Sequence record: OR515477.1
Source of the DNA: Escherichia phage Es2
Length of the DNA stretch: 64,000 nt
Direction: 5' to 3' (one strand)
The notes under the pieces are model-generated. The model saw nothing but the letters and a program-made list of their open reading frames with translations, did no database searches and had not been told where the DNA came from. Positions 9,114 through 39,064 of the stretch are shown here, in pieces. How positions within the stretch are numbered: position 1 is the stretch's first letter; every line of letters begins with the position of its first letter. Position numbers and translations under genes: made by a program.

Positions 9114-9156
9114 GATTGACACTAAGTCAGCTTACTAGCAAAAGCAAATAATGACA

Positions 9157-9193
9157 AAGCCCAGCCTGCACTTTTGCGACTGGGCTATTTTTA
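9157..9193 (+). terminator. intrinsic terminator
   Basis: Hairpin GCCCAG...CTGGGC followed by T-run. Confidence 0.6.
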
Positions 9194-9207
9194 TAATAAA
9201 ATTTTAG

Positions 9208-9236
9208 TTGCTTAGATGCCCAAACTTTTGTATAAT
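9208..9236 (+). promoter_or_regulatory. early-type sigma70 promoter
   Basis: TTGCTT - 17 bp - TGTATAAT, RBS AAGAGGA. Confidence 0.7.
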
Positions 9237-9267
9237 ATGTTTATAGATTGAGGCAAGAGGATTAAAT

Positions 9268-9966
9268 ATGAGGATTATTTCTAAGTTCGCCGATGTGTAT
9301 GATTTGCAGAACAGTTTGTTTGACCCAGATCGTGTGTGGGAACGTAAAACTGAGGAGTTACTGGTTAAAGTAACCGATGATGCAGAAAAGAACATTGTGC
9401 ATACTCGCCAGGTATTTCGTGATGGTTCGCTATCTTTCCGTGGTGATTTCGAATACTTTGTAAACCCACTATTTGTTGCAGGTGAAGTTTACTGGTTACA
9501 CGAGCTGTACTGCTGGCATCCAGCATTTAGCTTCAAAACGTTCAACCTCGACACTATGTTCGATAAAATGGAAGAGATGGGATTGCATGCTCGCTCTTAC
9601 TTAATGGATAAGAGTCGCGGAGATGTTCGTGAAACAATGCGTGATTTGCTCGCTGAAGCAAAACCTAAAGCAGAACGTATCTTATCCGAACTGCGTGTAC
9701 CGATTGCATATGTGAAAGGTATTAAGAAGAACGATAACGATGATGTTCGTAACTTCGTGATTCAGACTAACATTCGTTTCCATCAGTCAGGTATTCCGTG
9801 GCAGGAAATTGAAAGTAACTTATACCGTTTACACCAAGTTCTCGAACAGTATATCTTCGGTGTACTAGGAACTGGTGAGCCTGATATGATTAAAGTATCA
9901 GATAAAGACAGGTTAGCAGCGCATGGATTTGATACAAAAACTTCTTTCAGGAATATGGCAAGGTAA
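9268..9966 (+). CDS. hypothetical early protein
   Basis: Track ORF 232 aa. Confidence 0.65.
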   Translation: MRIISKFADVYDLQNSLFDPDRVWERKTEELLVKVTDDAEKNIVHTRQVFRDGSLSFRGDFEYFVNPLFVAGEVYWLHELYCWHPAFSFKTFNLDTMFDKMEEMGLHARSYLMDKSRGDVRETMRDLLAEAKPKAERILSELRVPIAYVKGIKKNDNDDVRNFVIQTNIRFHQSGIPWQEIESNLYRLHQVLEQYIFGVLGTGEPDMIKVSDKDRLAAHGFDTKTSFRNMAR

Positions 9967-10372
9967 GTGGTATATCCTGGGAGCAGGTCTAGCGATAGGC
10001 ATCGGGTTCGGTGCTTATCACTTAGTAGATAAAGTGGAGACTTTAGCGGGAGATCTTGCGGTAGCTACTAAAAAGATCTCTTCTCTAGAAACTTCCCTTA
10101 ATAAGGTGAAAGCTGAGAGCGAACTTCGGGAGACTCGAATGAACCAGTATTTCACAATGAATAATATTTCGCAAGCAGATCTAGACAAAAAGATTAAGCA
10201 GCTAGATAAAGCTCTTAGTCGTCAAGATATTATAGCTGCAAAGCCTGGATTGGTAACATTAATAGCTAAAAAGCAGAGTAGAGAGTTCGAGGAAAGATTA
10301 GCATGTTTAACTGGAAACTTGGAATACTGCTCGCAGCCGCAATCACAATCACAGGCTGTGCAGAAGAAATAA
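9923..10372 (+). CDS. hypothetical membrane-anchored coiled-coil protein
   Basis: Track ORF 149 aa; N-terminal TM helix; start uncertain (overlaps upstream ORF). Confidence 0.5.
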   Translation: MDLIQKLLSGIWQGKWYILGAGLAIGIGFGAYHLVDKVETLAGDLAVATKKISSLETSLNKVKAESELRETRMNQYFTMNNISQADLDKKIKQLDKALSRQDIIAAKPGLVTLIAKKQSREFEERLACLTGNLEYCSQPQSQSQAVQKK

Positions 10373-10656
10373 AACCAGAGCCTTCTCATGAGTTAAAGCA
10401 AGCTCATGTAGACTGGCCTAAAGGACTTCAACCTTGTAGCTTTGACTTTAAGTTTGAAAAGAAATTAGCTACAAATGGGGAAGATGGCGTAGTAGTTGTT
10501 GTACCATATAAAGATTGGAATGCAAAAGCAAAATGTGAGGAAGCAGTTTACTCTTACATTTCACGACTGACTGGTATGGTTTGCTTCTATCGCCAAGATT
10601 TACAAGAAAAACGTTGCTTAGTTTACTATCCACCAATTAACAATAGGAAAGATTAA
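10303..10656 (+). CDS. putative lipoprotein
   Basis: Track ORF 117 aa; signal peptide ending in lipobox-like ITGC. Confidence 0.5.
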   Translation: MFNWKLGILLAAAITITGCAEEIKPEPSHELKQAHVDWPKGLQPCSFDFKFEKKLATNGEDGVVVVVPYKDWNAKAKCEEAVYSYISRLTGMVCFYRQDLQEKRCLVYYPPINNRKD

Positions 10657-19740: not shown

Positions 19741-20187
19741 ATGAGAGAAAAAGTAAATGAATTATTAATCGAGGAAGCGAACAACTTCCCAATAAATAGG
19801 TTTATCAAATCGGATGGATCTATTAATAGAACTAAGATTAAGCAGTTACACCCCGACTTTCAACAAGAAGCGCTAAATCTTATATTTGTCAAGAAAGCTG
19901 TTGCAGCTCATGGGGTTTTCTTCGGGTATGAGCGTGTAAATTATAAGACAATGCAACAGCAGGTTGAGATATATTGTCCAGACCACAAGGGTTATTACTG
20001 GCAAACTGCTAGATCTCATTTAGAAGGGCATGGTTGTCGACTGTGCGCACACAAGGTTGTGCAGCGTATCACGGATTATGGAACTTATACCGTACCAGCA
20101 TGTTATCATAAATTTGTAATTGACGATAACCATATAGTTTGGTATAATAAGTTTTCAAAGTTAAGAATGGAGATAAATAGTGAGTAG
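19741..20187 (+). CDS. hypothetical protein with Cys/His cluster
   Basis: Track ORF 19699..20187 trimmed to ATG at 19741; CPDH...HGCRLCAH motif. Confidence 0.5.
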   Translation: MREKVNELLIEEANNFPINRFIKSDGSINRTKIKQLHPDFQQEALNLIFVKKAVAAHGVFFGYERVNYKTMQQQVEIYCPDHKGYYWQTARSHLEGHGCRLCAHKVVQRITDYGTYTVPACYHKFVIDDNHIVWYNKFSKLRMEINSE

Positions 20188-20470
20188 CTACATTGTATGG
20201 TCAAATCCATTAGCAGCACTTAGTAATAAATTATTTAAAACAGAATGGGGTAAAAACGAAATAGACTTAGGTAGTCGCCCAATACCAAATAAGCACCCAT
20301 TAGTACCCGAGCTATATAGGGTAGTTATAAATGGCACAGAGTATTTGGTCGATAAATTTGACAGAAAACGTTTACTAGAGGGTATCTACGATAATTCTAT
20401 ATCAATAAATGAATTAGTGGAACATGCCCAAATATATGATAAAAGCTGGATGTTAATATGGAAATCATAG
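20180..20470 (+). CDS. hypothetical early protein
   Basis: Track ORF 96 aa. Confidence 0.55.
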   Translation: MSSYIVWSNPLAALSNKLFKTEWGKNEIDLGSRPIPNKHPLVPELYRVVINGTEYLVDKFDRKRLLEGIYDNSISINELVEHAQIYDKSWMLIWKS

Positions 20471-20691
20471 CAATTATTTTAGTAGTTATGTTATTCATCG
20501 TAGTACTTGTATCTTTTGCTATTATGAGCAGAGCTAGAGAACTAGCAGAAGATCTAACAAAATTACGTGGTGAAGTGGCCGCCCTTAAACTACAGCGTGA
20601 GGCTTTAAAGTTGTTTGTAGTTCAGGGTAGCGTAGCTCATACACCAGAAGACTTCATCATATACCTCAAACGCTATATGGGGATTAAATAA
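20458..20691 (+). CDS. hypothetical membrane protein
   Basis: Track ORF 77 aa, N-terminal TM helix. Confidence 0.5.
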   Translation: MEIIAIILVVMLFIVVLVSFAIMSRARELAEDLTKLRGEVAALKLQREALKLFVVQGSVAHTPEDFIIYLKRYMGIK

Positions 20692-20876
20692 TGGAAACAC
20701 TTTTTCTTTTAATGCTCGTAGGTTCGTTAGTAGTTATATTAGCACTCCTATTAATCTGTAATATTCTTAATAATAAGAATTTAGGACTAAAGTGTGAGAA
20801 CCAAATCCTTAATCGTGAACTTGAGCAATATAACCTAGCAGCCCATAAACTATTAGACAAACTGGAGAATAAATAA
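20691..20876 (+). CDS. hypothetical membrane protein
   Basis: Track ORF 61 aa, N-terminal TM helix. Confidence 0.5.
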   Translation: METLFLLMLVGSLVVILALLLICNILNNKNLGLKCENQILNRELEQYNLAAHKLLDKLENK

Positions 20877-21475
20877 TGTTCACACAACAACCTATTCAAG
20901 TAGTACCAGACCATGAACTGAACACATGGGATTATAGCTTTAAAGATTTAACTGCTACTGTACAATTCAAATCTATGAAGCTAACATTTGCACACACTGA
21001 CCTTAGAGCATGTAAAGATCTTGAAGGTAAGCTAGAAGATGCTCGTAAGATTTTTGGCAAGGCTCGCATCCCGGCTGATAACCTGATTAATGCACTGATC
21101 GATGCAGGATACAAACTCGTGAAGGCTGAGGTTAACCGTCCTAGTACTCCAGTGACTATTAGAGATCCGTGGCAATCAGGGCCAATCGCAATGCTAAATA
21201 AATCATCGGATTTGCACAATGTTCCATGTGGCGGTACGCTGTCGTCTAATCAATCCTATCGAGTTGGGGAAGATTATGGGCCTTCTATACAGTTGAAACA
21301 TACTCAAGAAGCTCTTGAGTCTGACATGAAAAGCGTAGCACCGGGGAACTCTGGAGTTTCTAGGAATTCTGTCTATACTGTTCATTTAAACAATCCTGGT
21401 AATCATGGAAGTTTAGAGGATGCTATTATGGAGGCGTTGGGAGCTGTCATTAATGAAGATAAGAGAGGTAATTAA
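20876..21475 (+). CDS. hypothetical early protein
   Basis: Track ORF 199 aa. Confidence 0.6.
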   Translation: MFTQQPIQVVPDHELNTWDYSFKDLTATVQFKSMKLTFAHTDLRACKDLEGKLEDARKIFGKARIPADNLINALIDAGYKLVKAEVNRPSTPVTIRDPWQSGPIAMLNKSSDLHNVPCGGTLSSNQSYRVGEDYGPSIQLKHTQEALESDMKSVAPGNSGVSRNSVYTVHLNNPGNHGSLEDAIMEALGAVINEDKRGN

Positions 21476-21822
21476 TGATATTTGGTAAAACAAAAATAGC
21501 CCCTGCTGGGGAAAATTTAATTACTCTTAGCCTCTACTATAAGGATGAAAATGTAGAAATAGAAACATTAGAGTATGTTCTTATAAATACTAATAAGCCT
21601 AAAATAGGAGAGTTACTTGGTATAATCTCTAATATCTCTGATAGGGAAGATATTCCAAGTATAACACCAAAGAATATAGCTCACTTAGCACAACAATTAG
21701 GAATCTTGTGGTATAAAGTAGATCTTCCAGCTAAAGAAAGAACCAAAGGAACCTTTGCAGAGATCGCAAGAAAACCTAAGTCAGAAAAGAAAGAAACAGG
21801 GGAGCAAGCGTCTGATATATGA
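21475..21822 (+). CDS. hypothetical early protein
   Basis: Track ORF 115 aa. Confidence 0.55.
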   Translation: MIFGKTKIAPAGENLITLSLYYKDENVEIETLEYVLINTNKPKIGELLGIISNISDREDIPSITPKNIAHLAQQLGILWYKVDLPAKERTKGTFAEIARKPKSEKKETGEQASDI

Positions 21823-22532
21823 TTAAAGAAGCCGAAAAATTAAAACGTCTCATCCAGCTAGCGCGGGGTGCTACACAAAAGAGTCTTTCCCAGCTAACTA
21901 ATGAAGAAAAATATGCAGTAATGTTTTTAGGAGATCATTATCCTGCTAGGTGGGATAAAGGTAAGATCAAGTATGATCGTGATGCAAAACAAGTTGTTTG
22001 GTCAGGCTCATATGTAGAAGTGAATAAAGCATTAAAGGCTTTAGATCCTGAAGCAAAAGGTTTCTCTTCTAATGCTATTCATATTCTAATTGATGAAGAT
22101 CTCCCAAGATTTAAGGAAGCATCATTTAAAGAAGCATTAGCTAGTGAAGATCTTATTCCTTTTAAACACGGTAAGTATGCACATCTTCCACCACTAGAAA
22201 AAGAGAAACCTACTCTAGTTAAAGATGAAGTTTATCGTGGGATTGGCACAATGCTAGCGAGTTTGACTGTAGCTCTCCATAAAGATCTAGAGTTAACGCC
22301 CCTAGAAAACGCTGTGCATTTCATGTGCCATAAGTACGAGGATACATTTAAAGAGCTATGTAAGTCGCTAGGAATGCCAAGTTACACGATATTAAACTAT
22401 GCTCCTGAATATACTAGAGCAGCTCGTGGAACTATGGATTACGATGATACAGGATCCACTGCTTCCTATTTAGCAACTTATATCTACTTCGCATCCTTAG
22501 GTATCAAACTCAAATCCAAGAAGGAGGAATAA
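21819..22532 (+). CDS. hypothetical early protein
   Basis: Track ORF 237 aa; last coding gene before the repeat region. Confidence 0.6.
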   Translation: MIKEAEKLKRLIQLARGATQKSLSQLTNEEKYAVMFLGDHYPARWDKGKIKYDRDAKQVVWSGSYVEVNKALKALDPEAKGFSSNAIHILIDEDLPRFKEASFKEALASEDLIPFKHGKYAHLPPLEKEKPTLVKDEVYRGIGTMLASLTVALHKDLELTPLENAVHFMCHKYEDTFKELCKSLGMPSYTILNYAPEYTRAARGTMDYDDTGSTASYLATYIYFASLGIKLKSKKEE

Positions 22533-22549
22533 AAGTTAACAAAAAGTTC

Positions 22550-22579
22550 TTGCATTCTCATACCCAAACATGTTATAAT
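22550..22579 (+). promoter_or_regulatory. sigma70-like promoter firing into the non-coding repeat region
   Basis: TTGCAT - 18 bp - TATAAT; no ORF downstream. Confidence 0.45.
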
Positions 22580-22918
22580 AATCTCATAGATTAACAACTA
22601 CTCTAGTTGATTAACTCTAGGGGCGATGATTATTACACGAATGTCTCGTATAGCTTGCGGCCTAGCAACAGCGGTATGACGGCATGAGTACTCACGTAAT
22701 TAATCACGCGCCCACAGGAGAGACTCTCATGAAATTGGGGGTCTCTTTTTCTTTATATTATTTAAATATTTTTAATGGCAATATCTGTGTTCAAGATGAT
22801 ACACCTGTTGCCGCTCATCTGCTAGGATGGCACAACACTTTCTTCTAGACTCCTAAGTTTCTAGGAATAGTTGAGCACTAACTCTAGAGTTTACATTAAA
22901 CTTTAAATCTGTTTCTCT

Positions 22919-23075
22919 AGTCAACTCAGGCGGTTTTCATATTCCTAGAAACTCTAGCAATAGGCGGTTAATACAGGGCGGTTTTAGGGAGGGCGGTTAT
23001 TTCTAGAAGACATTTTTTGAAAACACATTTCTAGAAATTACTGTCGTATTTGCACACTGCATTTCTAGAAATTTA
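22919..23075. repeat. GGCGGTT direct repeats and ATTTCTAGAAAT palindromic 12-mers
   Basis: Four GGCGGTT(T/A) copies between 22919 and 23000; TTTCTAGAA(A/G) palindromes at about 23010, 23030 and 23062. Confidence 0.7.
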
Positions 23076-23643
23076 TGGTCGGATTTGCACAAACGCCTAA
23101 GTTTTTAGGAACATATAATCTCTTGAAAATGGCAGCATTATTTCGGGCCGAAGGCCCGTGATTGCCTGAGTTTTTAGAGCCACAAGAATTTTCACTTGTC
23201 AAGCTATTTTGCCCCATTTAGCAAATAAAATTTTACTTTATCTCCTCTAATCTCAAATTAACCCAAATCTTCTCAACTCTTCCCCAAAATACCCGCAAAT
23301 CAGGTGCTCCGCACCAAACATGCGCCTCTCCCACAGTTCCCCCAAAATTTCTCTCGCTCTCTCAACTTCTCCCCAAACATACACAATCACACACCCTCCA
23401 ATCGAAGCCACAAAAATCTTGTCGGATTCGCACATCTTAATCCTAGAAAAACCGTGTCGGATTTGCACATACCCCACAGGATTCGAACGCAGTTCGAGAT
23501 TGCTGGAGTTTTTAGGAAAATTCATTGTCGGATTCGCACACTATAAAAATTTTTCGGGTCGGATTTGCACACTACCAAAAATTGTCGGATTCGCACATAC
23601 ACGCCCGCACGTAACACCCGTGGAGCAATGTCGGATTTGCACA
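23042..23643 (+). repeat. eight direct copies of 15-bp motif (T/G)GTCGGATT(T/C)GCACA
   Basis: Copies at 23042, 23077, 23420, 23455, 23525, 23556, 23582 and 23629, all in the same orientation. Confidence 0.85.
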
Positions 23644-23667
23644 AAAGCGCAGGGCAATTGCCCTGCG
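23644..23667. repeat. perfect 24-bp palindrome AGCGCAGGGCAATTGCCCTGCGCT
   Basis: Read directly; centred on CAATTG, immediately after the last 15-bp repeat. Confidence 0.85.
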
Positions 23668-23880
23668 CTAAATGAGAATAAAAATAAGAATCATTCTCAT
23701 TTAGAAAGCGGAATGAGAATGATAATAATTCGCATTTAGAAAGCGAAATGAGAATCAATCTCATTTAAGAACGGAAACGAAAATTATTCAGGAAGTGAAA
23801 CGATTCTCATTTAGAAAGTGGAATGATTCTCATTTAGAAAGTGGAATGCAAATGATAATGATTCGCATTTAAGAATGGAA
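23668..23880. repeat. degenerate repeat family TCATTTAGAAAG(C/T)GGAATGA(T/G)
   Basis: At least six related copies with internal dyads (GAATGATTCTCATTC-like); a further copy at 24207-24232. Confidence 0.7.
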
Positions 23881-24012
23881 GTGAGAAACACTGTTATTTA
23901 AGTTATCCACAGACTTATCAACAGCACGATTTGACTTGACAAAATTCTAGCCATTTTGAGGCGTTATCAACAGACTTATCAACAGCTTATCCTACTGTAT
24001 AAATATACAGTA
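23880..24012. repeat. inverted-repeat arm L with DnaA-box-like 9-mers
   Basis: TTATCCACA at 23903 and TTATCAACA at 23915, 23964 and 23976; palindrome CTGTATAAATATACAG; reverse-complementary to 27111-27245. Confidence 0.8.
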
Positions 24013-24378
24013 TTCCTATGCAGTGAATAATTCTAATATACAGCTAAAACGCTCTCAAACGCATTCTAACGCGTTTAATTTTGGTGGGGATACTAAAACA
24101 CGGGCAAAATTGGAGGAGGCTTAGAAATTAGTTAGCTCGCTAACGATCACACAAGGCGACACGTAACATCCTAACCATTAGCAGGCTAACCATCGCGGGC
24201 GCGGTCAAATGAGAATGATTCTCATTTGAGAATTGGGGGCACTTCCTGATAGTTGCGCCCCGTGATTATTACAGTAGTGGGCAACCTTTACGCTTTGCCC
24301 ATTCCCGCCACTCATCTTGATGTCTAGACTTGCGACGGCGTACTAAAAACCATTTATACCAGTGATTAAACCATCGTT

Positions 24379-24582
24379 TCATAAATCCTCCTCCGGTAGT
24401 CGGTGCGTGATTTTTTCCTCCTCTCCGTAGGAATCCACTAAATGCTGATAATAACCATCGTGATCATAAATCACTTTATCATATTCGCCACGCTCGACCG
24501 CTTGTCGGTTTTCCGGCGTATCTGGCACGTAAAAAACATCAACCATTGTACTGATTTTGGTTACAACAATTTTATTGCTCAT
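24379..24582 (-). CDS. hypothetical small acidic protein
   Basis: Track ORF 67 aa; about 15 Asp/Glu against 7 Lys/Arg; last gene of the leftward operon. Confidence 0.55.
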   Translation of the reverse strand: MSNKIVVTKISTMVDVFYVPDTPENRQAVERGEYDKVIYDHDGYYQHLVDSYGEEEKITHRLPEEDL

Positions 24583-24607
24583 AATAACGCTCCGTTATTA
24601 TATAATC

Positions 24608-24952
24608 TCATTGTGCCACCTTTCGAAACGCTGTTTCAATACTTTCCGCAGTTGACTGAATATACGCGCCTTTCATGATCAGGCGCTCAGTGCATACCTT
24701 ACGGAAGATATTAATAAAATCATCTTCATTTTCTGCAATTAACGCTTCACCCATAACCTGAACGTCACAAGATGCAAAGGTCAAAAATTGAAACGCTAGT
24801 TCACGGGCAACGACCTCATTGATTTTATAATGCGCCTTGCCCTCATAAATATTAATAACGCCCTTATATGTTGGGGAAAGCTGATTTAAATAATTTGCTA
24901 ATAATGCTGGGCGGCAATTAGCAATAAAACGATTGCCTTCATAAATAACCAT
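24608..24952 (-). CDS. hypothetical protein
   Basis: Track ORF 24608..24967 trimmed to MVIYEG start with GGGAGG RBS. Confidence 0.55.
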   Translation of the reverse strand: MVIYEGNRFIANCRPALLANYLNQLSPTYKGVINIYEGKAHYKINEVVARELAFQFLTFASCDVQVMGEALIAENEDDFINIFRKVCTERLIMKGAYIQSTAESIETAFRKVAQ

Positions 24953-25079
24953 TTGACAGCCTCCCAATTAGATAGCCAGATAATAACATAAAGATCCCCA
25001 ATGAAAGGGGGTCATTTTTAAATAGGGTGGCGGTAAAACCGCCAGCCATTGCAAGGATGATAACAATAACGCTTTTCAT
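24939..25079 (-). CDS. hypothetical 46-aa membrane micro-protein
   Basis: Hand translation MKSVIVIILAMAGGFTATLFKNDPLSLGIFMLLSGYLIGRLSNGYL; overlaps neighbouring genes; below track cutoff. Confidence 0.4.
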   Translation of the reverse strand: MKSVIVIILAMAGGFTATLFKNDPLSLGIFMLLSGYLIGRLSNGYL

Positions 25080-25288
25080 AGTACCCCACGAAACGCAGCG
25101 TAAAAGGTGGCAAAATGTTTAACTGTTTCAGCTATCACGTTGCCGCGCTTGTCAAATTTCTTTTCTGTAACACGAAAGGCATTCTTATTACGTGCTACAT
25201 ATTCAATTTTACAATCTTCCCGCTCGAACGTGTTAACATCCACCAGCTTAAAGCCTTTCGAACGTGCAAGAGAAACATTGCGGATCAT
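25076..25288 (-). CDS. hypothetical basic protein
   Basis: Track ORF 70 aa; AGGAG RBS 8 nt upstream. Confidence 0.55.
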   Translation of the reverse strand: MIRNVSLARSKGFKLVDVNTFEREDCKIEYVARNKNAFRVTEKKFDKRGNVIAETVKHFATFYAAFRGVL

Positions 25289-25293
25289 TTTTA

Positions 25294-25440
25294 TTCTCCT
25301 TTACTAGTCATGCAGCCCAGCAGATAAGAAAATGCAGCGATACCCGCGCCAATAATAACCGCGTGAACACCGAAAGCTATTGCAAAAAGGGATAAAATAG
25401 CGCCCAAGATACCTGCTAGAATAGCTCGAAAAATAACCAT
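25294..25440 (-). CDS. hypothetical 48-aa membrane micro-protein
   Basis: Hand translation MVIFRAILAGILGAILSLFAIAFGVHAVIIGAGIAAFSYLLGCMTSKGE; GGAGA RBS; below track cutoff. Confidence 0.45.
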
Positions 25441-25486
25441 TTTCATTCTCCTAGTTTGCGGGGCGAAAGTAACGCCCCGTTATTAC

Positions 25487-25717
25487 TTACATTAAAACAA
25501 TTTTTGCCGCTTGTTTTTTAGTACAGTGTTCCGCTTTCAGGGTATCCAGCAAAAAGCCGGCCGTTTGCTGATCGATTTTATCGGCGTTGTATAGTTCTTG
25601 GATGGTGTTATAAGTTTTAGCAATGCCGAACTCCTGCACCATTTCATGAATGATGGCGCGATTAGATACCCAGCCTTGCGCGGTGAACAGATGACTAGCA
25701 GAAGAATAAGCAACCAT
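25487..25717 (-). CDS. hypothetical protein
   Basis: Track ORF 25487..25750 trimmed to MVAYSS start with GGAGG RBS. Confidence 0.55.
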   Translation of the reverse strand: MVAYSSASHLFTAQGWVSNRAIIHEMVQEFGIAKTYNTIQELYNADKIDQQTAGFLLDTLKAEHCTKKQAAKIVLM

Positions 25718-25835
25718 TTTAAACCTCCAAATTTTTGGGAAAATTTTCAACCGTCCTCAAACGGTGTAAAGGCATTATAACAAAAAAGGTCGCCATAAAA
25801 GGCGACCTTTACAAAACTTTACATTAGATTATTTA

Positions 25836-26846
25836 TTACTCGTTTTCGGTGTTAGTGGTAAAAGTAGAAATATCGATACCTTTTACCATTTCATCAATCA
25901 TTTCAGCGATGTTAAAACTTTGCACCATTTCCAACATTGCCGCTTCCATAGCTGCCCCTGCTACCGCTTTCGCTTTCTGGTTGCTTGGGGCATACTGGTC
26001 AACCGCTACGCTCAGCAGGTTGGCAATTACTACTCGACCGATAGGCGTATCAATATAACCTTTAATCATGAACGGTGCTTTTTTAGCCGCTACTTTCGTA
26101 ATTTGAGTCAGTGCAATTTTACCCGCTTCCAGTTTTGCAGCGTTTACAACGGCGGATTTATTAGCGGCAACGATGTTAGCAATCTTGGTCATGGTATTTT
26201 TTCCTTTATTTTCAGTGATTTGAGTATTAACGCTTTGAGTGTTAGAATTTACAGCATGGTTTTCTACGCTGTCAATAATCTGATCTTCATCTTTCCAGAA
26301 AGAAAAACCAGCGCTTTCTATATCCCCATCATAAATATACGGGTATAGCTCCCGTGGTAACAAAAAATTACCGTCGCCATCAAAAGCCATTATACCGGTA
26401 TATTGAGATCCGTCGTTATCCGGCTTATACCATCCAGCGGGTAAATACTTCCAGATAACATCTAAAAATCCCTCAATGCTAGAAAGTCCATTTATCAGAT
26501 CAAGCCCAATAAGCTCAAAACCATTTATATTAAATGATTGACGGCCTGAATTGCTATGATACGCAACAATAGTATTGCCCTGCGCAACAATAAAATCGGT
26601 ATCCGGCCCCGCTCCCCTGCCCGTAAAGATATGGCAATCCCGATTATGTAAAACTAGCGTTGCCCCTTGCTTATATAAGGGTAGAAAACTATCCATATCA
26701 TAGGCGTCATATTCATCAAAAAAGTTTTGATGAATAGTTTCAACCTTGTTAATAAAATGTTTAATGCTGGTTGACTTGCTACCGTCCAGCAGGTTACGCA
26801 ATGCACCTTTTAAGACGGTTGCGTTATCTGGTTTATAAAGCCTCAT
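25836..26846 (-). CDS. hypothetical protein with Ala/Lys-rich C-terminal half
   Basis: Track ORF 336 aa; first gene of the leftward operon. Confidence 0.65.
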   Translation of the reverse strand: MRLYKPDNATVLKGALRNLLDGSKSTSIKHFINKVETIHQNFFDEYDAYDMDSFLPLYKQGATLVLHNRDCHIFTGRGAGPDTDFIVAQGNTIVAYHSNSGRQSFNINGFELIGLDLINGLSSIEGFLDVIWKYLPAGWYKPDNDGSQYTGIMAFDGDGNFLLPRELYPYIYDGDIESAGFSFWKDEDQIIDSVENHAVNSNTQSVNTQITENKGKNTMTKIANIVAANKSAVVNAAKLEAGKIALTQITKVAAKKAPFMIKGYIDTPIGRVVIANLLSVAVDQYAPSNQKAKAVAGAAMEAAMLEMVQSFNIAEMIDEMVKGIDISTFTTNTENE

Positions 26847-27110
26847 TTGTTCGGCCTCCTCGTTAATCGGTGAGTGAATGATAAAGGTATTTTCTTTCTA
26901 GGGGCAAATATTATTTTACCTTTTTATTTTCTTTGCCTAACTCCTAGTTTTATGCTAATCGCGCAGCGGTACAGTAAAGAGCAAAACACGGCGAAGCCAC
27001 CAGGGCGACGGGTGAAGGCTTTACTTTAATATTACCCCACTGCATTTAGCTCGTTAGAAAGCGATTTAGGCCGCTTAAAATTGATTGCAGTTGTTAACAC
27101 TACCTTTTTA

Positions 27111-27245
27111 CCCTGTATATTTATACAGTAGGATAACCTGTGGATAAGTCTGTGTAAAAGTCCTTATATCGCCGCCTATCATGTCAAGTTATTTTACAAA
27201 ATGTATAAGTCTGTGGATAACTTAAATAATAGTGTTTCTCACTAA
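27111..27245. repeat. inverted-repeat arm R with DnaA-box-like 9-mers
   Basis: TGTGGATAA at 27139 and 27212; palindrome CTGTATATTTATACAG; reverse-complementary to 23880-24012. Confidence 0.8.
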
Positions 27246-27410
27246 CTAATTTATGCAGTTATTATATCGTAAAATATAGTTAGTTGGCTAATAGGATTTT
27301 AAAGTGATTATGAGTCCGCTAATTAAACCTGAAAAACTCATTAGCTAGTCTGCTAATCATTTTGATATAATATAATAGAGATTAAATTAATAACATAAGG
27401 AAACAATTAG

Positions 27411-27929
27411 ATGCCTAAATATAAACATATAGATTATGACCTTTTTAATAGTTACTTTTATTATGATGAAACATCGTTATCATTTTTACGCTGGCGAGAA
27501 GATCATGCCATCGCTGGTGGTTTAAATGGTAATTATTGGCAAGTTGAATTATTAGATAAAGGACAATTCAAAGTACATAGAATTATTTTTTGTATAATGA
27601 ATGGTGGTATAGATAGCGAGCTAATGATTGATCATATTGATCGTAACCCCCGTAATAATAACATTTGGAATCTTCGCGCGGTTGATAGTTCCCAGAATAA
27701 CTATAATAAGACTCCTAGTGAGTATGAAAACTATAAGCGTGCTAATGGTATCCCTAGAAACATTTACGTTAATAAAATTCGCCCCCGTGATAGTTTCGGG
27801 CGTGATTATTTAACTGCTCAAATTAAGAATCCTATTACTAACAAGCGTGTTAGTAAGTCTGGTTATGATTTACAAGAGTTATTATTATGGCTTGAAGCTA
27901 AAAAAGCTGAATTCGGAATTGTCAATTAA
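27411..27929 (+). CDS. HNH endonuclease (homing-endonuclease-like)
   Basis: 172 aa; HIDRNPRNNNIWNLR...SQNNYNK His-Me finger pattern; AT-rich gene inside a more GC-rich module. Confidence 0.65.
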   Translation: MPKYKHIDYDLFNSYFYYDETSLSFLRWREDHAIAGGLNGNYWQVELLDKGQFKVHRIIFCIMNGGIDSELMIDHIDRNPRNNNIWNLRAVDSSQNNYNKTPSEYENYKRANGIPRNIYVNKIRPRDSFGRDYLTAQIKNPITNKRVSKSGYDLQELLLWLEAKKAEFGIVN

Positions 27930-28154
27930 TTTATTTTATAAATTAACTCGTTTAGTCTTGATTTTTAAAAGTCAAGACCTTTTTCAACTATTTTTCAATT
28001 TTGCGGTTGTTAAATATTTGTTAAACCGAAAATAAGCCGCCTAAAACGCCCCAGAACGCGATGAAAGTTTTAGTCATGCCATTGCATTGCCTACCCTCGT
28101 TTATCGCTACCACGAGCTTTTTAGATTTTGTCAAGTAGGGGAAAGCAAATATAA

Positions 28155-28445
28155 ATGAAAAAATTACTTGCCTATCTGCTATGTTTTGTGGTATTCACGC
28201 GCCCGTTTCTTTTAATTTTAGTGTGCCGCGCCCTAGTCGCCGCACGCCGTCCGGTGAATCGTGTCTTTACGTTTCTTTACAAAAATAAGGTTGCGCCATT
28301 TTCGGGAATCCCCTATTATTTATCACGTAGGGCGGCAATGACGAACTACACGGCGGGAAGTTTACCGCCACGCTCTTTAAAAATTGGGTATATCTTAAAG
28401 CCTATCGGCGGTAAACTTATTCATTATAAGGAATCGACGATATGA
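28155..28445 (+). CDS. doubtful ORF (possible small secreted protein)
   Basis: Track ORF 96 aa with hydrophobic N-terminus, but GC-rich and structured region; could be non-coding. Confidence 0.25.
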   Translation: MKKLLAYLLCFVVFTRPFLLILVCRALVAARRPVNRVFTFLYKNKVAPFSGIPYYLSRRAAMTNYTAGSLPPRSLKIGYILKPIGGKLIHYKESTI

Positions 28446-28645
28446 AACAAACGCTTTTGATAACTGGTAAACCAGCTAAAAAATTAGATGGTACTACTAA
28501 AAAATTGTTGACAGTAGCGCAAAGATCCATAAGATATAGATTCACGCAGTACAAGAAAGGCCGCCAGCAAGGTTTAGAAATGATCTGGCGAAATATTATG
28601 ATTGACCTGAAAGAAAATCATAAAAAACTGCAAAAAATTGTTTGA
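28442..28645 (+). CDS. hypothetical small basic protein
   Basis: Track ORF 67 aa; bracketed by a 17-bp perfect inverted repeat. Confidence 0.5.
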   Translation: MKQTLLITGKPAKKLDGTTKKLLTVAQRSIRYRFTQYKKGRQQGLEMIWRNIMIDLKENHKKLQKIV

Positions 28646-28670
28646 CACCCTAGCCGATAGGCTTTAAGAT
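28642..28670 (+). promoter_or_regulatory. sigma70 promoter overlapping an inverted-repeat arm
   Basis: Consensus TTGACA at 28642, 17-bp spacer, TAAGAT at 28665; overlaps IR arm 28653-28669. Confidence 0.5.
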
Positions 28671-28875
28671 GTACCCAGTTCGATGAGAGCGATAACTTGA
28701 TACAATTTGACGGTCGGTGCTTACCATAATGCATCCCGCCCCCTAACTGGGATATAGCGGCCTGAGTGGAGTTCTTTAAATTGATTATAATGGCGAGCGG
28801 ATTGTTACTTATTACCTGCTACTATTTTCTAGTAGGTAATGCGAAACAATCCCCTAAATAACTGGAGTTTATACT

Positions 28876-29127
28876 ATGCAAAACGTTACTAATGCGCCGA
28901 AAATTGGTCAATCCGTTTTTATCCCTTTCGTTACCAAAACGGATGAATTAACCGGAAAAGCCGAACGTATTAAAGGTGCGGCGCTTATGCCGTTCGATAC
29001 AATCGACGCGGTATACGCTGAAAATGAACGCAGTAACAACGGCAAGCCGATTTATAACGTTCGCGTTAAATCCGGCGACGTTGTAAAGGTTGTTCAACGC
29101 AACGAAAAATGGGAAGCTGTACTGTAA
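28876..29127 (+). CDS. hypothetical pre-early protein
   Basis: Track ORF 83 aa, GGAG RBS; followed by a 9-bp-stem hairpin at 29143-29168. Confidence 0.6.
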   Translation: MQNVTNAPKIGQSVFIPFVTKTDELTGKAERIKGAALMPFDTIDAVYAENERSNNGKPIYNVRVKSGDVVKVVQRNEKWEAVL

Positions 29128-29225
29128 TCTAGTGTTAACTTTATATTCCCCTGAAATATGGGGAATATAACGATTAACATTAGTTAATCATAATCCCTTA
29201 AATTAAACTAATAGGAGTTTATATC

Positions 29226-29633
29226 ATGACTAACGCAAAAACCGCAAAATTCGCATGGAATGAAGAAAACACCCAAAAAGCTGTTACCATGTACCAGCAG
29301 TTAATCAACGAAAACGGTTTAGATTTCGCAAATAGTGACGGGCTGAAAGAGATTGCAAAAGCAGTAGGCGCGGCTTCTCCCGTATCCGTTCGCTCAAAAT
29401 TGACCAGTGCAAAAGCCTACCAGAAAAGCGATAAGCCGCGTAAAGTTGGCGGCGGCAGTTCTGTACGCAAAGCGCATTATGTGCGTGTTATTGCTAAACA
29501 TGCCATTGATTCCGGCATTATCAAAGACGCTGACGATCTGGCATCACTGGAAAGTGCAAAACTTGAAACGCTGGACGCGGTAGCGCAATTGCTAGGCGTT
29601 GCCGATGAAGTGAAACAAGCCGCAGGCGAATAA
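29226..29633 (+). CDS. A2: A2-like pre-early protein (putative DNA-binding)
   Basis: 135 aa; position immediately upstream of the A1-like gene; assignment by synteny and size only. Confidence 0.5.
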   Translation: MTNAKTAKFAWNEENTQKAVTMYQQLINENGLDFANSDGLKEIAKAVGAASPVSVRSKLTSAKAYQKSDKPRKVGGGSSVRKAHYVRVIAKHAIDSGIIKDADDLASLESAKLETLDAVAQLLGVADEVKQAAGE

Positions 29634-29722
29634 TAGTTATACATTGCCCTTCCTAGTGGGAGGGCAATAATATAACTGTTTAGCGATAGTTATTTTCTTC
29701 CCTTAAATCAGGAGTTTTAAAA

Positions 29723-29920
29723 ATGATTTTCTTTCCTACTGAATCATTAATTTTAGGCTTGTTTATTATGGCGGCCTCATTATTGTTCGCTTATTTTCAA
29801 AATGATTTAGATTCATATTATTTTAAACGTAAATCTAAGTTAGCAAAGCGTTTAGGTCTGATTTGTTTTATTGCCGCCGTTGCTTGTGGTGTTAGTTCTA
29901 GCCTTATGCCTTTAAATTAA
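29723..29920 (+). CDS. hypothetical membrane protein
   Basis: Track ORF 65 aa, two hydrophobic segments. Confidence 0.5.
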   Translation: MIFFPTESLILGLFIMAASLLFAYFQNDLDSYYFKRKSKLAKRLGLICFIAAVACGVSSSLMPLN

Positions 29921-30016
29921 TGTTGCAAATTATAACGCCTATTATTCAAGGCGTTATATTTGGCAATATTTGCCAATAACAAACGTTTTTTAATCCCTTT
30001 AATGGAGTTTATTACT

Positions 30017-31681
30017 ATGATTATTTCCGCAGAAAAACAAACCGTTATCCTGAAAATGGCCGCTGACTTTAATTTCTATGGTAAACGTCTGCGCGCCACT
30101 AAACTGGAGGTCTGCGACGATATATCAAAAGCGGTCTACGATACAACAAAACACTCGACCGCCATTTGTGATTGGCTGGAAGCAAATAAACCAGTTAAAC
30201 CAAAAGCTGCAAAAGTAGCAAAAGCTATTAAAAACGATGAGCGCCCCGAAGCGGCTGGGATCGTTTCTAGCACGGTTGAACAGTGGGAAGTAAAACAAGG
30301 CAAACGCTTTATTATTACGTCGATTCAGAATAATACTTTCCCGCATAAAAACTTTTTGGCCTCGCTTGAACAGTATGCTAAATACATCGGCGCTGATTTG
30401 CTTGTTTCTAAGTATATTTATAATAAAAACGGCTTCCAAAATGGTGAAGGTGCGGATGGAATCAAATATGATTCCGCGTTCGATAAGTATATTTGCAGCA
30501 AAAACGTGTTTTTAAACAACCGCCGTTTTGCTTTCATGGCTGAAATTAACGTTTTGCCTACCGCAGATTATCCGCTTTCTGGATTCGCTGAAACTGCAAC
30601 GGCGCTTAATCTTGAAGGTCTGGCAATTGGTCACGCTAAAATCACCGCCGAAAGCGTGCCAGCTTTAAAAGGTGAAGTAGTACGCCGCATGTACTCAACC
30701 GGAACGGCAACGCTAAAAAACTACATTCAGCAGAAAGCAGGGCAAAAAGCGGAAGCGCTGCATAACTTCGGTGCGCTGATTGTTGAGTTCGACGAAGACG
30801 GTGAGTTTTTTGTACGCCAGCTTGAAACAATGGACGAAAGCGGGGTGTTTTATGATCTGAATGTTTGCGCTACTCCCGCAGGATGCTATGAAACATCGGG
30901 GCATGTTTTAGGTTTACAATATGGCGACATCCACGCAGAAAAATTAGATGATGATTGTGCCGTTGCGTCATGGGCTGGCGAAAATAGCTTGCTTGATATT
31001 CTTAAACCAAAATATCAGTTTATCCATGACGTTCACGATTTTACATCTCGCAATCATCATAATCGTGCGTCCGGTGTATTCCTAGCGAAACAGTACGCCG
31101 CCGGACGTGATAAAGTTCTGGATGATCTTATCGATACGGGGCGCGTGCTGGAATCAATGGAACGTGATTTTAGTCAAACGATCATTGTTGAATCGAATCA
31201 CGATTTGGCGCTATCCCGTTGGCTGGATGATCGTAATGCTAACATTAAAGACGATCCAGCAAACGCCGAACTATATCACCGCCTGAATGCTGCAATTTAC
31301 GCGGCAATCGGTGAACACGACGAAACGTTTAACGTGTTAGATTATGCGCTGCGCAAGGTTGCAGGTTGCGAGTTTAACGCCATTTTCCTAACAACTGACC
31401 AATCATTTAAAATTGCAGGCATCGAGTGTGGCGTACACGGTCACAACGGCATTAACGGAAGCCGTGGCAATCCTAAACAGTTTAAGAAATTGGGCAAACT
31501 GAACACGGGGCATACGCATACGGCAAGCATTTACGGCGGGGTATACACCGCTGGCGTGGCTGGTAGTCTGGACATGGGTTACAACGTTGGCGCGTCAAGC
31601 TGGACGCAAACGCATTTAATTACCTATGCAAACGGTCAGCGCACTTTGATTGACTTTAAAAACGGTAAATTCTTTGCGTAA
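30017..31681 (+). CDS. A1: A1-like pre-early protein with metallophosphatase motifs
   Basis: Track ORF 29960..31681 trimmed to ATG at 30017 with GGAG RBS (554 aa); ESNHD and GHTHT phosphoesterase-like motifs. Confidence 0.7.
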   Translation: MIISAEKQTVILKMAADFNFYGKRLRATKLEVCDDISKAVYDTTKHSTAICDWLEANKPVKPKAAKVAKAIKNDERPEAAGIVSSTVEQWEVKQGKRFIITSIQNNTFPHKNFLASLEQYAKYIGADLLVSKYIYNKNGFQNGEGADGIKYDSAFDKYICSKNVFLNNRRFAFMAEINVLPTADYPLSGFAETATALNLEGLAIGHAKITAESVPALKGEVVRRMYSTGTATLKNYIQQKAGQKAEALHNFGALIVEFDEDGEFFVRQLETMDESGVFYDLNVCATPAGCYETSGHVLGLQYGDIHAEKLDDDCAVASWAGENSLLDILKPKYQFIHDVHDFTSRNHHNRASGVFLAKQYAAGRDKVLDDLIDTGRVLESMERDFSQTIIVESNHDLALSRWLDDRNANIKDDPANAELYHRLNAAIYAAIGEHDETFNVLDYALRKVAGCEFNAIFLTTDQSFKIAGIECGVHGHNGINGSRGNPKQFKKLGKLNTGHTHTASIYGGVYTAGVAGSLDMGYNVGASSWTQTHLITYANGQRTLIDFKNGKFFA

Positions 31682-31735
31682 TTAAATTATTACCCTAGCG
31701 GCTTGAAATACAGCCGCTATTATAGGAGTCAAAAA

Positions 31736-31993
31736 ATGAAAGTTACATTACCCAAAACATTAGACGAAAAAGCGTTTATTTCCCCCGATGAAATGGAATC
31801 CGATAAAGTTTACAGCTTCGGGCCTATCCTAGCCGCCAAAACTAATACTGATGGAATTATTACAGTCGATTATCGTGATAATGATATTGTTCCCTTTGAC
31901 GATGATGACGCTTTTTACGAGTGGTTAAGCGATAATAATTTACCCGTAAGTGGTGAATTAACGCCGTATCAGATGCAAATCATTATCAAATAA
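31736..31993 (+). CDS. hypothetical pre-early protein
   Basis: Track ORF 31703..31993 trimmed to ATG at 31736 with AGGAG RBS. Confidence 0.55.
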   Translation: MKVTLPKTLDEKAFISPDEMESDKVYSFGPILAAKTNTDGIITVDYRDNDIVPFDDDDAFYEWLSDNNLPVSGELTPYQMQIIIK

Positions 31994-32032
31994 TTTAAAT
32001 CCCCTTATTAAACTAATTGGAGTTTTATAACT

Positions 32033-32425
32033 ATGAAAAAGCAAAATATCCCATTCGACCGCGCTCAGTCCTCAATTGTTCTGGTTTATTCCAACGGCGA
32101 ACGTTACCACGTCGAGGCGGGGCACGTTATTGATGACCTATTAGATTTCAATGACGCTTTGCAGGTTACTACCTTTGCATATACGCAGGGCAAACTAACC
32201 AGCCATATTAAAGCAAAAGGCGTTTATGTTGACACGGTGAAACAAGAAACGATTATCATCGACGCCGTAAAATCCGGCCTAGCCTTTGCAGTTGTCGCGC
32301 CTTGCCTCGCTTGCCTTGATGATCAATTGATTAGTGCAAAGGTCTACACATGTGCGGGGATTCGTTCTAGCGTATCCGGTGAGGATGTTAGTTTTATCGC
32401 TGATGCGTTGGCTTATGGTCTTTAA
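32033..32425 (+). CDS. hypothetical pre-early protein
   Basis: Track ORF 130 aa, GGAG RBS. Confidence 0.6.
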   Translation: MKKQNIPFDRAQSSIVLVYSNGERYHVEAGHVIDDLLDFNDALQVTTFAYTQGKLTSHIKAKGVYVDTVKQETIIIDAVKSGLAFAVVAPCLACLDDQLISAKVYTCAGIRSSVSGEDVSFIADALAYGL

Positions 32426-32505
32426 TAGTTGATTTATTATTGCCCGCTTATAAATAGCGGGTAATGCTGAATTAATCTAATCCCTTAAATGGAGAACGTA
32501 ACAAA

Positions 32506-33240
32506 ATGAGTCAAGTTAAAACGAATATTACCCGCTCTTTCCCGCATATTTCCCGCGTTATGATTTGGGATCTGGACGGCACTATCATTAATTCTTTCCA
32601 TCGTGTAGCGCCTTGTTTTGATAGCGAGGGCAATTTAGATTTAAATAAATATAAAAATGAAGCCTGCAAACATCATTTAATAATGCAGGATTCATTATTG
32701 CCATTAGTTGAATATATGCGCCAGTGTATGAATGACGCTAACACGTTAAACATTATTTGCACCGCTCGACTGATGAGCAAGTCAGATTATTATTTCTTGC
32801 GTAAACAAGGATTGCGGGGGCGTGGAAATAGCAATATCCGCGTGTTTTCCCGCGATACCCTGCACAAATACTTTAAAGCTGATAAAGTTAGCGAGATATA
32901 CCACAGTAAGGACGCAGTTTATAAATCTTATTATTTTGAATTATTTAAACAATTATATCCGAACGCTGATTTTACAATGATTGATGATCATAAAGGCGTG
33001 TTAGCGGCGGCGGCATCATACGGATTTAAAACGCTGGACGCACAAGCCGTTAACGATATTCTATCAATCGGTGTTACATTGATTGGTGAAACCTTTATTG
33101 ATGAATCGCTCGACGATGATAATGATTATCAGTTCCTAGCAGACCGCCTGCAATTATGTTGGGAAGGTATGACCGAGGAAGAACGCGCAGAATATAGTTG
33201 CAGTCCTCAACAGTACATCGAGAAATTAAAAGTTGCATAA
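32506..33240 (+). CDS. dmp: 5'-deoxyribonucleotidase, HAD family
   Basis: 244 aa; HAD motif I IWDLDGTIINS; size and position match my recollection of T5 dmp. Confidence 0.75.
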   Translation: MSQVKTNITRSFPHISRVMIWDLDGTIINSFHRVAPCFDSEGNLDLNKYKNEACKHHLIMQDSLLPLVEYMRQCMNDANTLNIICTARLMSKSDYYFLRKQGLRGRGNSNIRVFSRDTLHKYFKADKVSEIYHSKDAVYKSYYFELFKQLYPNADFTMIDDHKGVLAAAASYGFKTLDAQAVNDILSIGVTLIGETFIDESLDDDNDYQFLADRLQLCWEGMTEEERAEYSCSPQQYIEKLKVA

Positions 33241-33397
33241 TAATTAAAGTTGAAATAGTCACGGTGTGTAATGATAACATGCCGTGACTATTAGTCTGCT
33301 AAGTACCGGGCGGTAATGAGACTCATTCTCATCTGGTGGGCCACTGGACACACCTCCATGTGTAATCTTATGAAATTTGGCAAAAAGGTAATTAGCG

Positions 33398-36713: not shown

Positions 36714-37196
36714 ATGGCAAATGATGTACTAGTACCAGATCTTATGTCCCCTGAAGGGATGGATGTGATTGAAGCTTATTTACAGTGCGGCAGCGATGTG
36801 CCTTCTGCCGCACGTAGTCTTGGAATGTCCGAAATTGCTTTCCGAGATATTATGAATCGTAGTGAAGTTAAGAACTACTTAAATGATATTTTTATGGAGA
36901 GTGGTTTCCGTAATAGGGATCGTTTATTTGGTGTTCTAGATGAAGTTATTAAACGTAAGCTAGAGGAGCTAGAAGAAACTGGCATGGGTTCTGACCAAGA
37001 TATTATGGATATTCTCTGGAAAGCACATAAAATGAAAATGGAAGAAATGAAGATGATGGTAGAGTTGGAAAAAGCTAAAGCTGCTGTCCGTGCTCCTGCT
37101 AATCAGACCAATATTCAGAATAACATTATTGCTGGAGCTGGGGATCAAAACTACATGGATTTAATTACTTCCCTAGCTACTGGAGGTAAAAAGTAA
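36714..37196 (+). CDS. terminase small subunit
   Basis: 160 aa, directly upstream of and overlapping the large terminase gene. Confidence 0.7.
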
Positions 37197-38512: not shown

Positions 38513-38626
38513 ATAAGTATAGGATGGGATACTACTCAGTTGGTATCCCATTCCTGCATTTTAAAATCCCCTTTACAAATTCGATACGATTATGTATACT
38601 ATATTCATACAGTTGAGGAGAACACT

Positions 38627-39064
38627 ATGGCAAGCAATATAAAATATAAACGCGATGCTATATCCCTTATGAGAGACGGAATAAAAAGTCAATATAAAAA
38701 AGACTCTCAATGTGCTATCTGCGGTTGTGCTGAAGAATTAGAGCTTCATCATTACCATACGGTGTCTCTACTAGTTAAAAAATTTGCTAAAGAACTCCAA
38801 TTGGATTTCACTGACGAAGAAACAGTCCTCTCAAATAGGACGGCATTCTATGATCGATATAGGCATGAGCTAGTAGAAGACACTGTTACCCTTTGTGTAC
38901 ACCATCACCAATTATTACATAAGGTTTACACAAAAGAACCTCCTTTATTTTCTGCTAATAAGCAAAAAGTGTGGGTTCAAAAGCAGAAAGACAAATTACA
39001 GAATCCTCAAGAAAAGACACAAGTCAAGACTGAAACAAAATCAGGATTCGCAAGGTTCTTATAA
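38627..39064 (+). CDS. HNH endonuclease
   Basis: Track ORF 38540..39064 trimmed to ATG at 38627 with GAGGAG RBS; CAICGC...HHYH...CVHHHQLLH. Confidence 0.65.
   Translation: MASNIKYKRDAISLMRDGIKSQYKKDSQCAICGCAEELELHHYHTVSLLVKKFAKELQLDFTDEETVLSNRTAFYDRYRHELVEDTVTLCVHHHQLLHKVYTKEPPLFSANKQKVWVQKQKDKLQNPQEKTQVKTETKSGFARFL

Follow-up and report, generated by a model that had tools for sequence, protein, structure and literature searches.

We identified the array of direct repeats and palindromes at positions 22919–23075 of the 64-kb window (the whole stretch of DNA that was analysed) as, by sequence homology, this phage's copy of the already described Repeat Region 3 block of T5-like phages. The repeats are clustered far beyond chance, and the array appears to be a conserved, cis-acting element, with protein binding as the most plausible reason for its conservation. 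Its invariant elements are the direct repeats, GGGCGGTT in two copies and GTCGGATTTGCACA, together with a hairpin, while the dyads are mostly not conserved. As a function we put forward, at just short of even confidence, a protein-binding array for the cutting and packaging of concatemers at the boundaries of the terminal repeat (DTR).

Repeat content and genomic position of the array

Conservation was scored on an alignment of the block from 23 phages (Tequintavirus, Epseptimavirus and phiR2-01), in which identity to the window was calculated by element. The parts of the array and of both DTR boundaries are as follows.

22858: weak palindrome copy TTTCTAGGAA, just outside 22919–23075
22929–22935, + strand: GGCGGTT copy 1, the most variable copy (mean identity 0.90, minimum 0.50)
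22942–22951, unstranded: degenerate palindrome TTCCTAGAAA, poorly conserved (mean identity 0.52)
22963–22969, + strand: GGCGGTT copy 2, first unit of a 14–15-bp tandem series
22976–22983, + strand: copy 3, GGGCGGTT, essentially invariant (identity 0.99)
22991–22998, + strand: copy 4, GGGCGGTT, essentially invariant (identity 0.99)
22999–23010, unstranded: palindrome-like ATTTCTAGAAGA (10/12), never a perfect dyad
23027–23038, unstranded: perfect 12-mer ATTTCTAGAAAT, second palindrome, perfect in this phage only (1/23)
23043–23056, + strand: DRD repeat GTCGTATTTGCACA, one mismatch to the family consensus
23061–23072, unstranded: perfect 12-mer ATTTCTAGAAAT, third palindrome, core TTTCTAGAAA kept in 19/23
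23078–23091, + strand: DRD repeat GTCGGATTTGCACA, invariant (identity 0.99)
23095–23110, unstranded: inverted-repeat motif CCTAAGTTTTTAGGAA, with related copies at 22851, 23164 and 23502
23144–23156, unstranded: hairpin/palindrome GGGCCGAAGGCCC, invariant, 21–33 bp outside the repeat boundary
23167–23186, unstranded: right terminal-repeat boundary in T5 terms, ...GAGTTTTTA followed by GAGCCACAAG, first repeat base 23177
23421–23643, + strand: six further exact DRD copies, inside the terminal repeat
33308–33350, + strand: left-terminus block GGGCGGTAATGAGACTCATTCTCAT...GGACA, holding the last of the three GGGCGGT words in the window

The preliminary description had counted three to five palindromes in the array, and inspection gave two exact copies of ATTTCTAGAAAT, one match at 10 of 12 positions and a weaker one at 22942, with 22858 falling just outside. 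When the 12-mer was counted over the 64-kb window, as had been suggested, it was found only at 23027–23038 and 23061–23072, and three of the five occurrences of the core TTCTAGAA lie at 23001, 23029 and 23063. For five TTTCTAGAAA-like sites within 214 bp, a Poisson scan estimate gives a chance of ~2e-6 to 3e-5. The four GGCGGTT repeats described at the outset are likewise present, at 22929, 22963, 22977 and 22992 on the + strand, and represent half of the eight sites in the window (both strands; expected total 3.36); by the same type of estimate, four such words within 70 bp have a window-wide chance of ~6e-8 to 2e-6. Both reported copies of the 15-bp DRD motif, GTCGGATT(T/C)GCACA, could be located at 23043 (one mismatch) and 23078. 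At up to two mismatches this motif has 11 matches in the window against 0.52 expected, and eight copies, seven of them exact, form the DRD family at 23043–23643. With six of these lying inside the terminal repeat, the family straddles the repeat boundary. The third palindrome and the DRD copy next to it constitute a composite repeat of 34–35 bp. An extra DRD-like copy, ATCGGATTTGCACA, was observed at 21205–21218 within the coding ORF 20876–21475, and almost every T5-like locus inspected has such a copy ~1.7–2.0 kb ahead of the outside pair.

Avoidance of the XbaI site TCTAGA, which had been named as a control for the palindrome counts, does not hold in this DNA, as the site is over-represented with 37 occurrences against 22.3 +/- 4.4 in shuffles, none of which reached 37. 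The shorter word CTAG occurs 310 times in the window and is densest in the 500 bp at 22601–23100, with 13 occurrences compared to a mean of 2.4. CTAG-rich repeats were also seen in the equivalent zones of Aeromonas and Vibrio relatives.

Judged by its sequence, the window belongs to a T5-like phage (Demerecviridae) in reverse orientation: the 16 tRNA genes, the pre-early genes dmp, A1 and A2 and the late structural genes follow the order of T5, reversed, and the 2-kb non-coding stretch that holds the array matches 457 phage records, best the Salmonella phages STP-SP2 and SESL at 92%. The DTR boundaries of the window were assigned by homology to the annotated ends of relatives. The genome end of T5, identical to the end of its left terminal repeat (10219), aligns to 23176|23177, and the independently annotated repeat ends of SIA3lw and phiR2-01 fall on exactly the same junction, with the coverage-based annotations of Kenya-K38 and K18 lying 30–100 bp further in. 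The left end of T5 aligns to 33350|33351. The terminal repeat, collapsed to one copy, therefore spans 23177–33350 (10,174 bp), and the array lies 100–258 bp outside of it, on the early-gene side.

No convincing ORF was found over 1.85 kb, from 22533 to ~24380, and the early operon (ending at 22532) as well as the pre-early operon (ending at ~24379) point into this non-coding stretch, with a terminator at 22716–22749 upstream of the array. A consensus scan of 22780–23180 returned no sigma-70 promoter-like site, and an Rfam scan of 20000–27000 at E <= 1 returned nothing in the array and sub-threshold chance matches elsewhere. Two ORFs that are annotated as hypothetical proteins in some records were rejected, 23065–23217 (- strand) due to 1-nt indels in relatives and 22684–22848 (+ strand) due to relatives being unrelated upstream of 22790. 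Caution is consequently advised in annotating small ORFs called in this block, such as 23065–23217. A possible sigma-54 promoter, TGGCAC-N5-TTTC at ~22826, was also discarded, being poor in conservation across relatives and having no GC at -12.

Two further features of the stretch should be mentioned in their own right. The 65-bp non-coding block TTCAAGATGATACACCTGTTGCCGCTCATCTGCTAGGATGGCACAACACTTTCTTCTAGACTCCT at 22790–22854 is 100% identical to T5 and near-invariant in 20 of 23 relatives, despite mutually unrelated DNA directly upstream. Furthermore, 22549–22756 (+ strand) carries a candidate small RNA, composed of an extended -10 promoter (TTGCAT-18-TGTTATAAT), a 171-nt stretch and the terminator; the 171-nt stretch has no conserved ORF, a predicted fold of -61.3 kcal/mol (z = -6.1) and no Rfam match, and the promoter together with the start AATCTCATAGATTA is also found in Klebsiella phage Sealy.

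Conservation and the motif shared by both genome ends

The Repeat Region nomenclature for T5 reportedly goes back to Wang et al. 2005. In a comparison of 25 T5-like phages, Repeat Region 3 of T5 was placed at 9194–10409 in AY587007 numbering (Davison, bioRxiv 10.1101/866236). With its 270-bp overhang and the boundary at 23177, the region would reach to ~22907 in the window and thus contain the whole array. The two blocks are homologous, with 85–88% identity to T5 ~10,220–10,600 (NC_005859) and near-identity over 22928–23176; they occupy the same position from the last pre-early gene to the first early operon, spanning the terminal-repeat end, and display the DRD family, palindromes and a DRA-like motif in the same order. 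They differ in the number of DRD copies, nine in T5 compared to eight at 23043–23643 here (the order being conserved in 23 phages), of which three and two, respectively, lie outside the repeat. In addition, the first GGCGGTT copy is intact in this phage and reads GGGCAGTT in T5 (GGCAGTT in T5 and several relatives), and the perfect second 12-mer palindrome is unique to this phage and not found in T5. According to the same preprint, what these repeats do cannot be guessed, and the model proposed there deals with DnaA boxes located deeper within the repeat (Davison, bioRxiv 10.1101/866236). In the T5 repeat literature that we searched, no function is assigned to these repeats.

Within the 23-phage alignment, the hairpin GGGCCGAAGGCCC reached an identity of 1.00, the second DRD copy 0.99 and the first 70 bp of the repeat 0.92, compared to 0.42–0.66 for the spacers and the segment 22871–22927. 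GGCGGTTATTTCT is invariant. The distance from array to boundary is constant, with almost no indels, and the start of copy 4 of GGGCGGTT precedes the first terminal-repeat base by 186 bp both here and in STP-SP2. The adjacent gene, at 33–61% protein identity in most relatives, is conserved far less than the non-coding block. The tandem GGCGGTT series (14–15 bp) comprises two to five units depending on the relative, with extra units in OSYSP and NG_A1 and fewer in GreteKellenberger.

The palindromes behave differently from the direct repeats. In the first of them, ATTTCTAGAAGA, the left half ATTTCT is invariant and the right half variable, the second is replaced in relatives by TTTCCAGAAA, TTTCTGGAAA or similar sequences, and the third is kept as (G/A)TTTCTAGAAAT in 19 of the 23 phages. 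In STP-SP2, the closest complete relative (111,769 bp), ATTTCTAGAAAT is absent and TTTCTAGAAA occurs once. These data bear directly on the original proposal that the dyad-symmetric 12-mers are operators for a small dimeric transcription regulator of the phage, which we regard as hardly credible: two perfect 12-bp dyads and one near-dyad, 28–34 bp apart, are indeed present and one dyad is conserved in 19 of 23 relatives, but symmetry is not conserved for two of three copies (the central one being perfect in 1 of 23), STP-SP2 keeps a single TTTCTAGAAA, GGGCGGT stands at the other DTR boundary as well, and with convergent operons and the terminator at 22716–22749 bracketing the region and no promoter-like site in or beside the dyads in the consensus scan (22780–23180), there is no evident promoter to operate on. 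What stands of the proposal is a conserved cis array with plausible protein binding, whereas the operator function for a transcription regulator finds little support.

In more distant relatives, the surrounding non-coding DNA (Sealy, My1 and AhSzq-1) could not be aligned, and the repeat words persist. Klebsiella phage Sealy contains GGGCGGTT twice, followed by ATTTCCAGAAAC, outside the boundary, and more than 10 DRD copies which flank a TTTTTTAGAGCCACAGG boundary motif on both sides; its hairpin CACGGTGTGTCACCGTG differs in sequence from GGGCCGAAGGCCC of T5-like phages and takes the same place. In Pectobacterium phage My1, a member of another subfamily, CAGGGCGGTTTAGGGGGAGGGCGGTTATTCCCTAGA lies 168 bp outside the annotated repeat end, and in Aeromonas phage AhSzq-1 the outside GGGCGGTT pair is retained as GGGCGGTTTAGGGGCGGTTATT. 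Proteus phage M4H10_20 has GGGCGGT once, inward of the boundary-like motif, and in Vibrio phage pVp-1 no GGGCGGT was found outside the boundary. A search of IMG/VR with a 27-mer anchor yielded 11 close relatives only; since the 14-mer GAGGGCGGTTATTT and the 16-mer GGGCGGTAATGAGACT hit many unrelated contigs at chance rate, only T5-like contigs were used from these searches.

The word GGGCGGT occurs three times in the window (both strands), at 22976, 22991 and 33308, in each case on the + strand and beside a DTR boundary. The copy at 33308–33314 lies 36–42 bp inside the boundary 33350|33351. The total is not above chance (2.33 expected) and only the placement is unusual, with a probability of ~1e-6 that was judged post hoc. 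STP-SP2 has four GGGCGGT[AT]A sites in its entire genome, three of which are located at the two boundaries. My1 carries a nearly identical version of the left-terminus sequence GGGCGGTAATGAGACTCATTCTCAT at its own left end, and a terminal motif GGGCGGTAA(T/C)GAGACT was found at a fixed distance (27–43 nt) from the ends of the records for My1 and a number of complete T5-like genomes, as well as just downstream of dmp in the Vibrio (pVp-1), Aeromonas and Proteus relatives. The left-end copy of T5 itself is degenerate (GGTGGCGGTTAG). Recurrence of GGGCGGT at the other DTR boundary suggests a function at the genome ends rather than as a gene operator. A link by motif between both DTR boundaries was not found in the T5-related literature searched. 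As sequences common to both cuts, a candidate terminal inverted repeat and G(A/G)GCCAC were considered and rejected, being inconsistent among T5, this phage and My1.

Several observations concern the neighbouring DNA inside the repeat. Iterons of the form AATGAGA-N5-TCTCATT are located at 23680–23880 and 24207–24227, and the same dyad follows GGGCGGT at 33315–33333; they resemble a Fur box. In the whole STP-SP2 genome, only three copies of ATGAGA-N5-TCTCAT are present, of which two lie in the injection-stop zone and one at the left terminus. Flanked by the DnaA-box pairs in the injection-stop zone of the window, the sequence TACTGTATAAATATACAGTA at 23995–24014 fits the LexA SOS-box consensus at 19 of 20 positions. 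CTGT-N8-ACAG boxes were seen at the equivalent place in Sealy and the Proteus, Aeromonas and Vibrio relatives, with an imperfect one in My1; LexA is not mentioned in the preprint on T5-like repeats (Davison, bioRxiv 10.1101/866236). A perfect 22-bp palindrome, GCGCAGGGCAATTGCCCTGCGC, is situated at 23646–23667, approximately where the major single-strand interruption of T5 (9748/9749) maps.

Packaging, transfer and other possible functions

Short direct repeats arrayed around a cut site are a typical feature of the sites recognised by small terminases, as in lambda cosB, SPP1 pacL/pacR and P1 pac. Comparable to these sites (lambda cosB R-sites/cosQ, SPP1 pacL/pacC/pacR, P1 pac hexamers), repeats of a single orientation are located on both sides of the cut here, with A/T-rich bendable DNA between them, and as in lambda cosQ a related element is found some tens of bp upstream of the cut that would terminate packaging. 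The likeness is one of position and layout, with no sequence similarity seen. It should be noted that direct terminal repeats of ~10 kb are made by T5-type phages and by none of lambda, SPP1 and P1, and that, unlike the sites of those phages, the array is 180–250 bp away from the cut, on the non-packaged side. By homology the array is adjacent to the cut that creates the genome end of T5, SIA3lw and phiR2-01, and the GGGCGGT core is the element common to the second cut site, in this phage as well as in My1 and the Aeromonas, Proteus and Vibrio relatives.

T5 injects its DNA starting with the left end. If, as is usual, the DNA packed last is the first to leave, packaging would begin at the right end, a direction deduced from the order of injection. 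In the model that we favour, the tandem GGGCGGT(T/A) units would be recognised by the terminase complex, with the putative small terminase (36714–37196) and the large subunit (37196–38512) as candidate readers, or else by another protein that processes the ends. The array would be situated 180–250 bp upstream of the initiating cut at 23176|23177, creating the first-packaged end, and the single GGGCGGT 36–42 bp upstream of the terminating cut at 33350|33351, in a cosQ-like position. As accessory or architectural sites, the model includes the hairpin, the DRD repeats that flank the array and the A/T-rich TTTC..GAAA elements. Homology, location relative to experimentally annotated ends, pattern of conservation and the motif common to both boundaries are observed, and what we infer is the identity of the bound protein and that its binding would steer cutting or packaging. 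The candidate small terminase is assigned by PHROG family only, and Pfam gave no match for it, for A2 or for A1. Going one step further, we tentatively suggest as a possibility that the end machinery of the T5 family recognises its DNA by the word GGGCGGT(T/A)A, with the array nucleating packaging initiation and the single copy specifying the terminating cut; if true, this would be the first pac/cos-like signal pair defined for a phage with ~10-kb direct terminal repeats. The gene between those of the large terminase and the portal (38540–39064, 174 aa) displays weak similarity to HNH endonucleases, and its counterpart in STP-SP2 is annotated as 'nicking endonuclease'.

Against the packaging reading, it must be considered that the outside array is not universal, as seen from Proteus M4H10_20 and Vibrio pVp-1, that it resides on that side of the initiating cut which is not packaged with this end, and that the left-end copy in T5 itself has degenerated. 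The array of Sealy, moreover, is ~510 bp from the boundary-like motif, so that the array alone cannot set the cut position. Our literature search returned nothing on packaging signals of T5.

The main rival is a signal for second-step transfer that depends on A2, which we consider unlikely. Here, the array would be bound by A2 (29226–29633) together with A1, or by a membrane or host factor, and the bound factor would grip the first DNA past the injection stop and restart or ratchet its entry, with the left-terminal GGGCGGT anchoring or protecting the first-entering end. A2 is a DNA-binding protein essential to second-step transfer by an unknown mechanism, and a homologue is encoded in the window. 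The injection stop signal of T5 (9140–10149) maps inside the repeat, to ~23250–24280, and the array, beyond the left-repeat end, is the first DNA of the second step; in T5 terms it is found at ~8.5% of the genome, compared to 7.9–8.3% for the stop. Its location outside the repeat restricts it to the junction of left repeat and unique DNA, as would suit an injection-specific signal, and every relative with A1 retains the motif at the terminus that enters first. However, the fixed distance of 42–43 nt between the left-terminal motif and the end fits the specification of a cut site better than end binding, the Vibrio and Proteus relatives without the outside array still encode A1, and the A2 literature examined reports no sequence-specific binding.

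An origin-like element, in which DRD and GGGCGGTT would serve as iterons for a phage initiator such as the UL9-like helicase D2 and the A/T-rich palindromes as unwinding element, appears weaker than A2-dependent transfer and, in our view, quite improbable. Replication from such a site would copy the terminal repeat and could serve its duplication. The array shares with iteron-type origins tandem repeats of the same orientation and variable copy number, a 40-bp A/T-rich stretch (73–77% A+T, 23000–23049) and nearby DnaA-box pairs. T5 D2 resembles herpesvirus UL9, has a predicted helix-turn-helix and has been suggested to take part in initiating replication, STP-SP2 carries an 'obp' gene annotated as 'putative replication origin binding protein', and the DRD core TTCGCAC resembles HSV UL9 box I, CGTTCGCACTT. 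In contrast to iteron-type origins, no initiator gene is adjacent, the DnaA boxes are ~900 bp away and a motif is shared with the genome terminus. The A/T-rich segment is short and variable and is replaced in STP-SP2 and oselot, and an origin leaves the GGGCGGT at a fixed distance from the other terminus unexplained. Furthermore, earlier mapping placed the T5 origins near the genome centre (cited in Davison, bioRxiv 10.1101/866236).

There is finally a slim chance that the array is an architectural or host-factor site. In that case, a nucleoid protein of the host would bind to the repeats and the bendable, CTAG-rich elements, or these would adopt a bent or cruciform shape; the junction would be organised in this way, for example by a barrier that keeps early transcription apart from the repeat. 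CTAG reaches its peak density in the window here, together with several inverted repeats and a single-strand fold of z = -4.7, and the neighbouring injection-stop zone is equipped with host-like motifs (DnaA boxes, a LexA-type box, Fur-like repeats). Nevertheless, no IHF consensus was detected in the array, the single site being at 23977, and neither GGGCGGTT nor DRD nor TTTCTAGAAA matched a host factor consensus. Retention of GGGCGGT across hosts as distant as Aeromonas favours a phage-encoded reader.

Implications for the T5 family

The array does not represent a new kind of element, but a known feature that is conserved throughout the family. Comparison between relatives separates its invariant parts, namely the two copies of GGGCGGTT, DRD, the hairpin and the boundary block, from incidental ones, to which most palindromes belong, and thereby touches on what the conserved repeats and palindromes near the end of the repeat may do. 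The link of the array to a conserved left-terminal motif is a new and testable lead, for which a short list of bases and three candidate proteins, the small terminase subunit, A2 and D2, can now be given. It bears on the question of how T5-type phages form their exact 10-kb terminal repeats.
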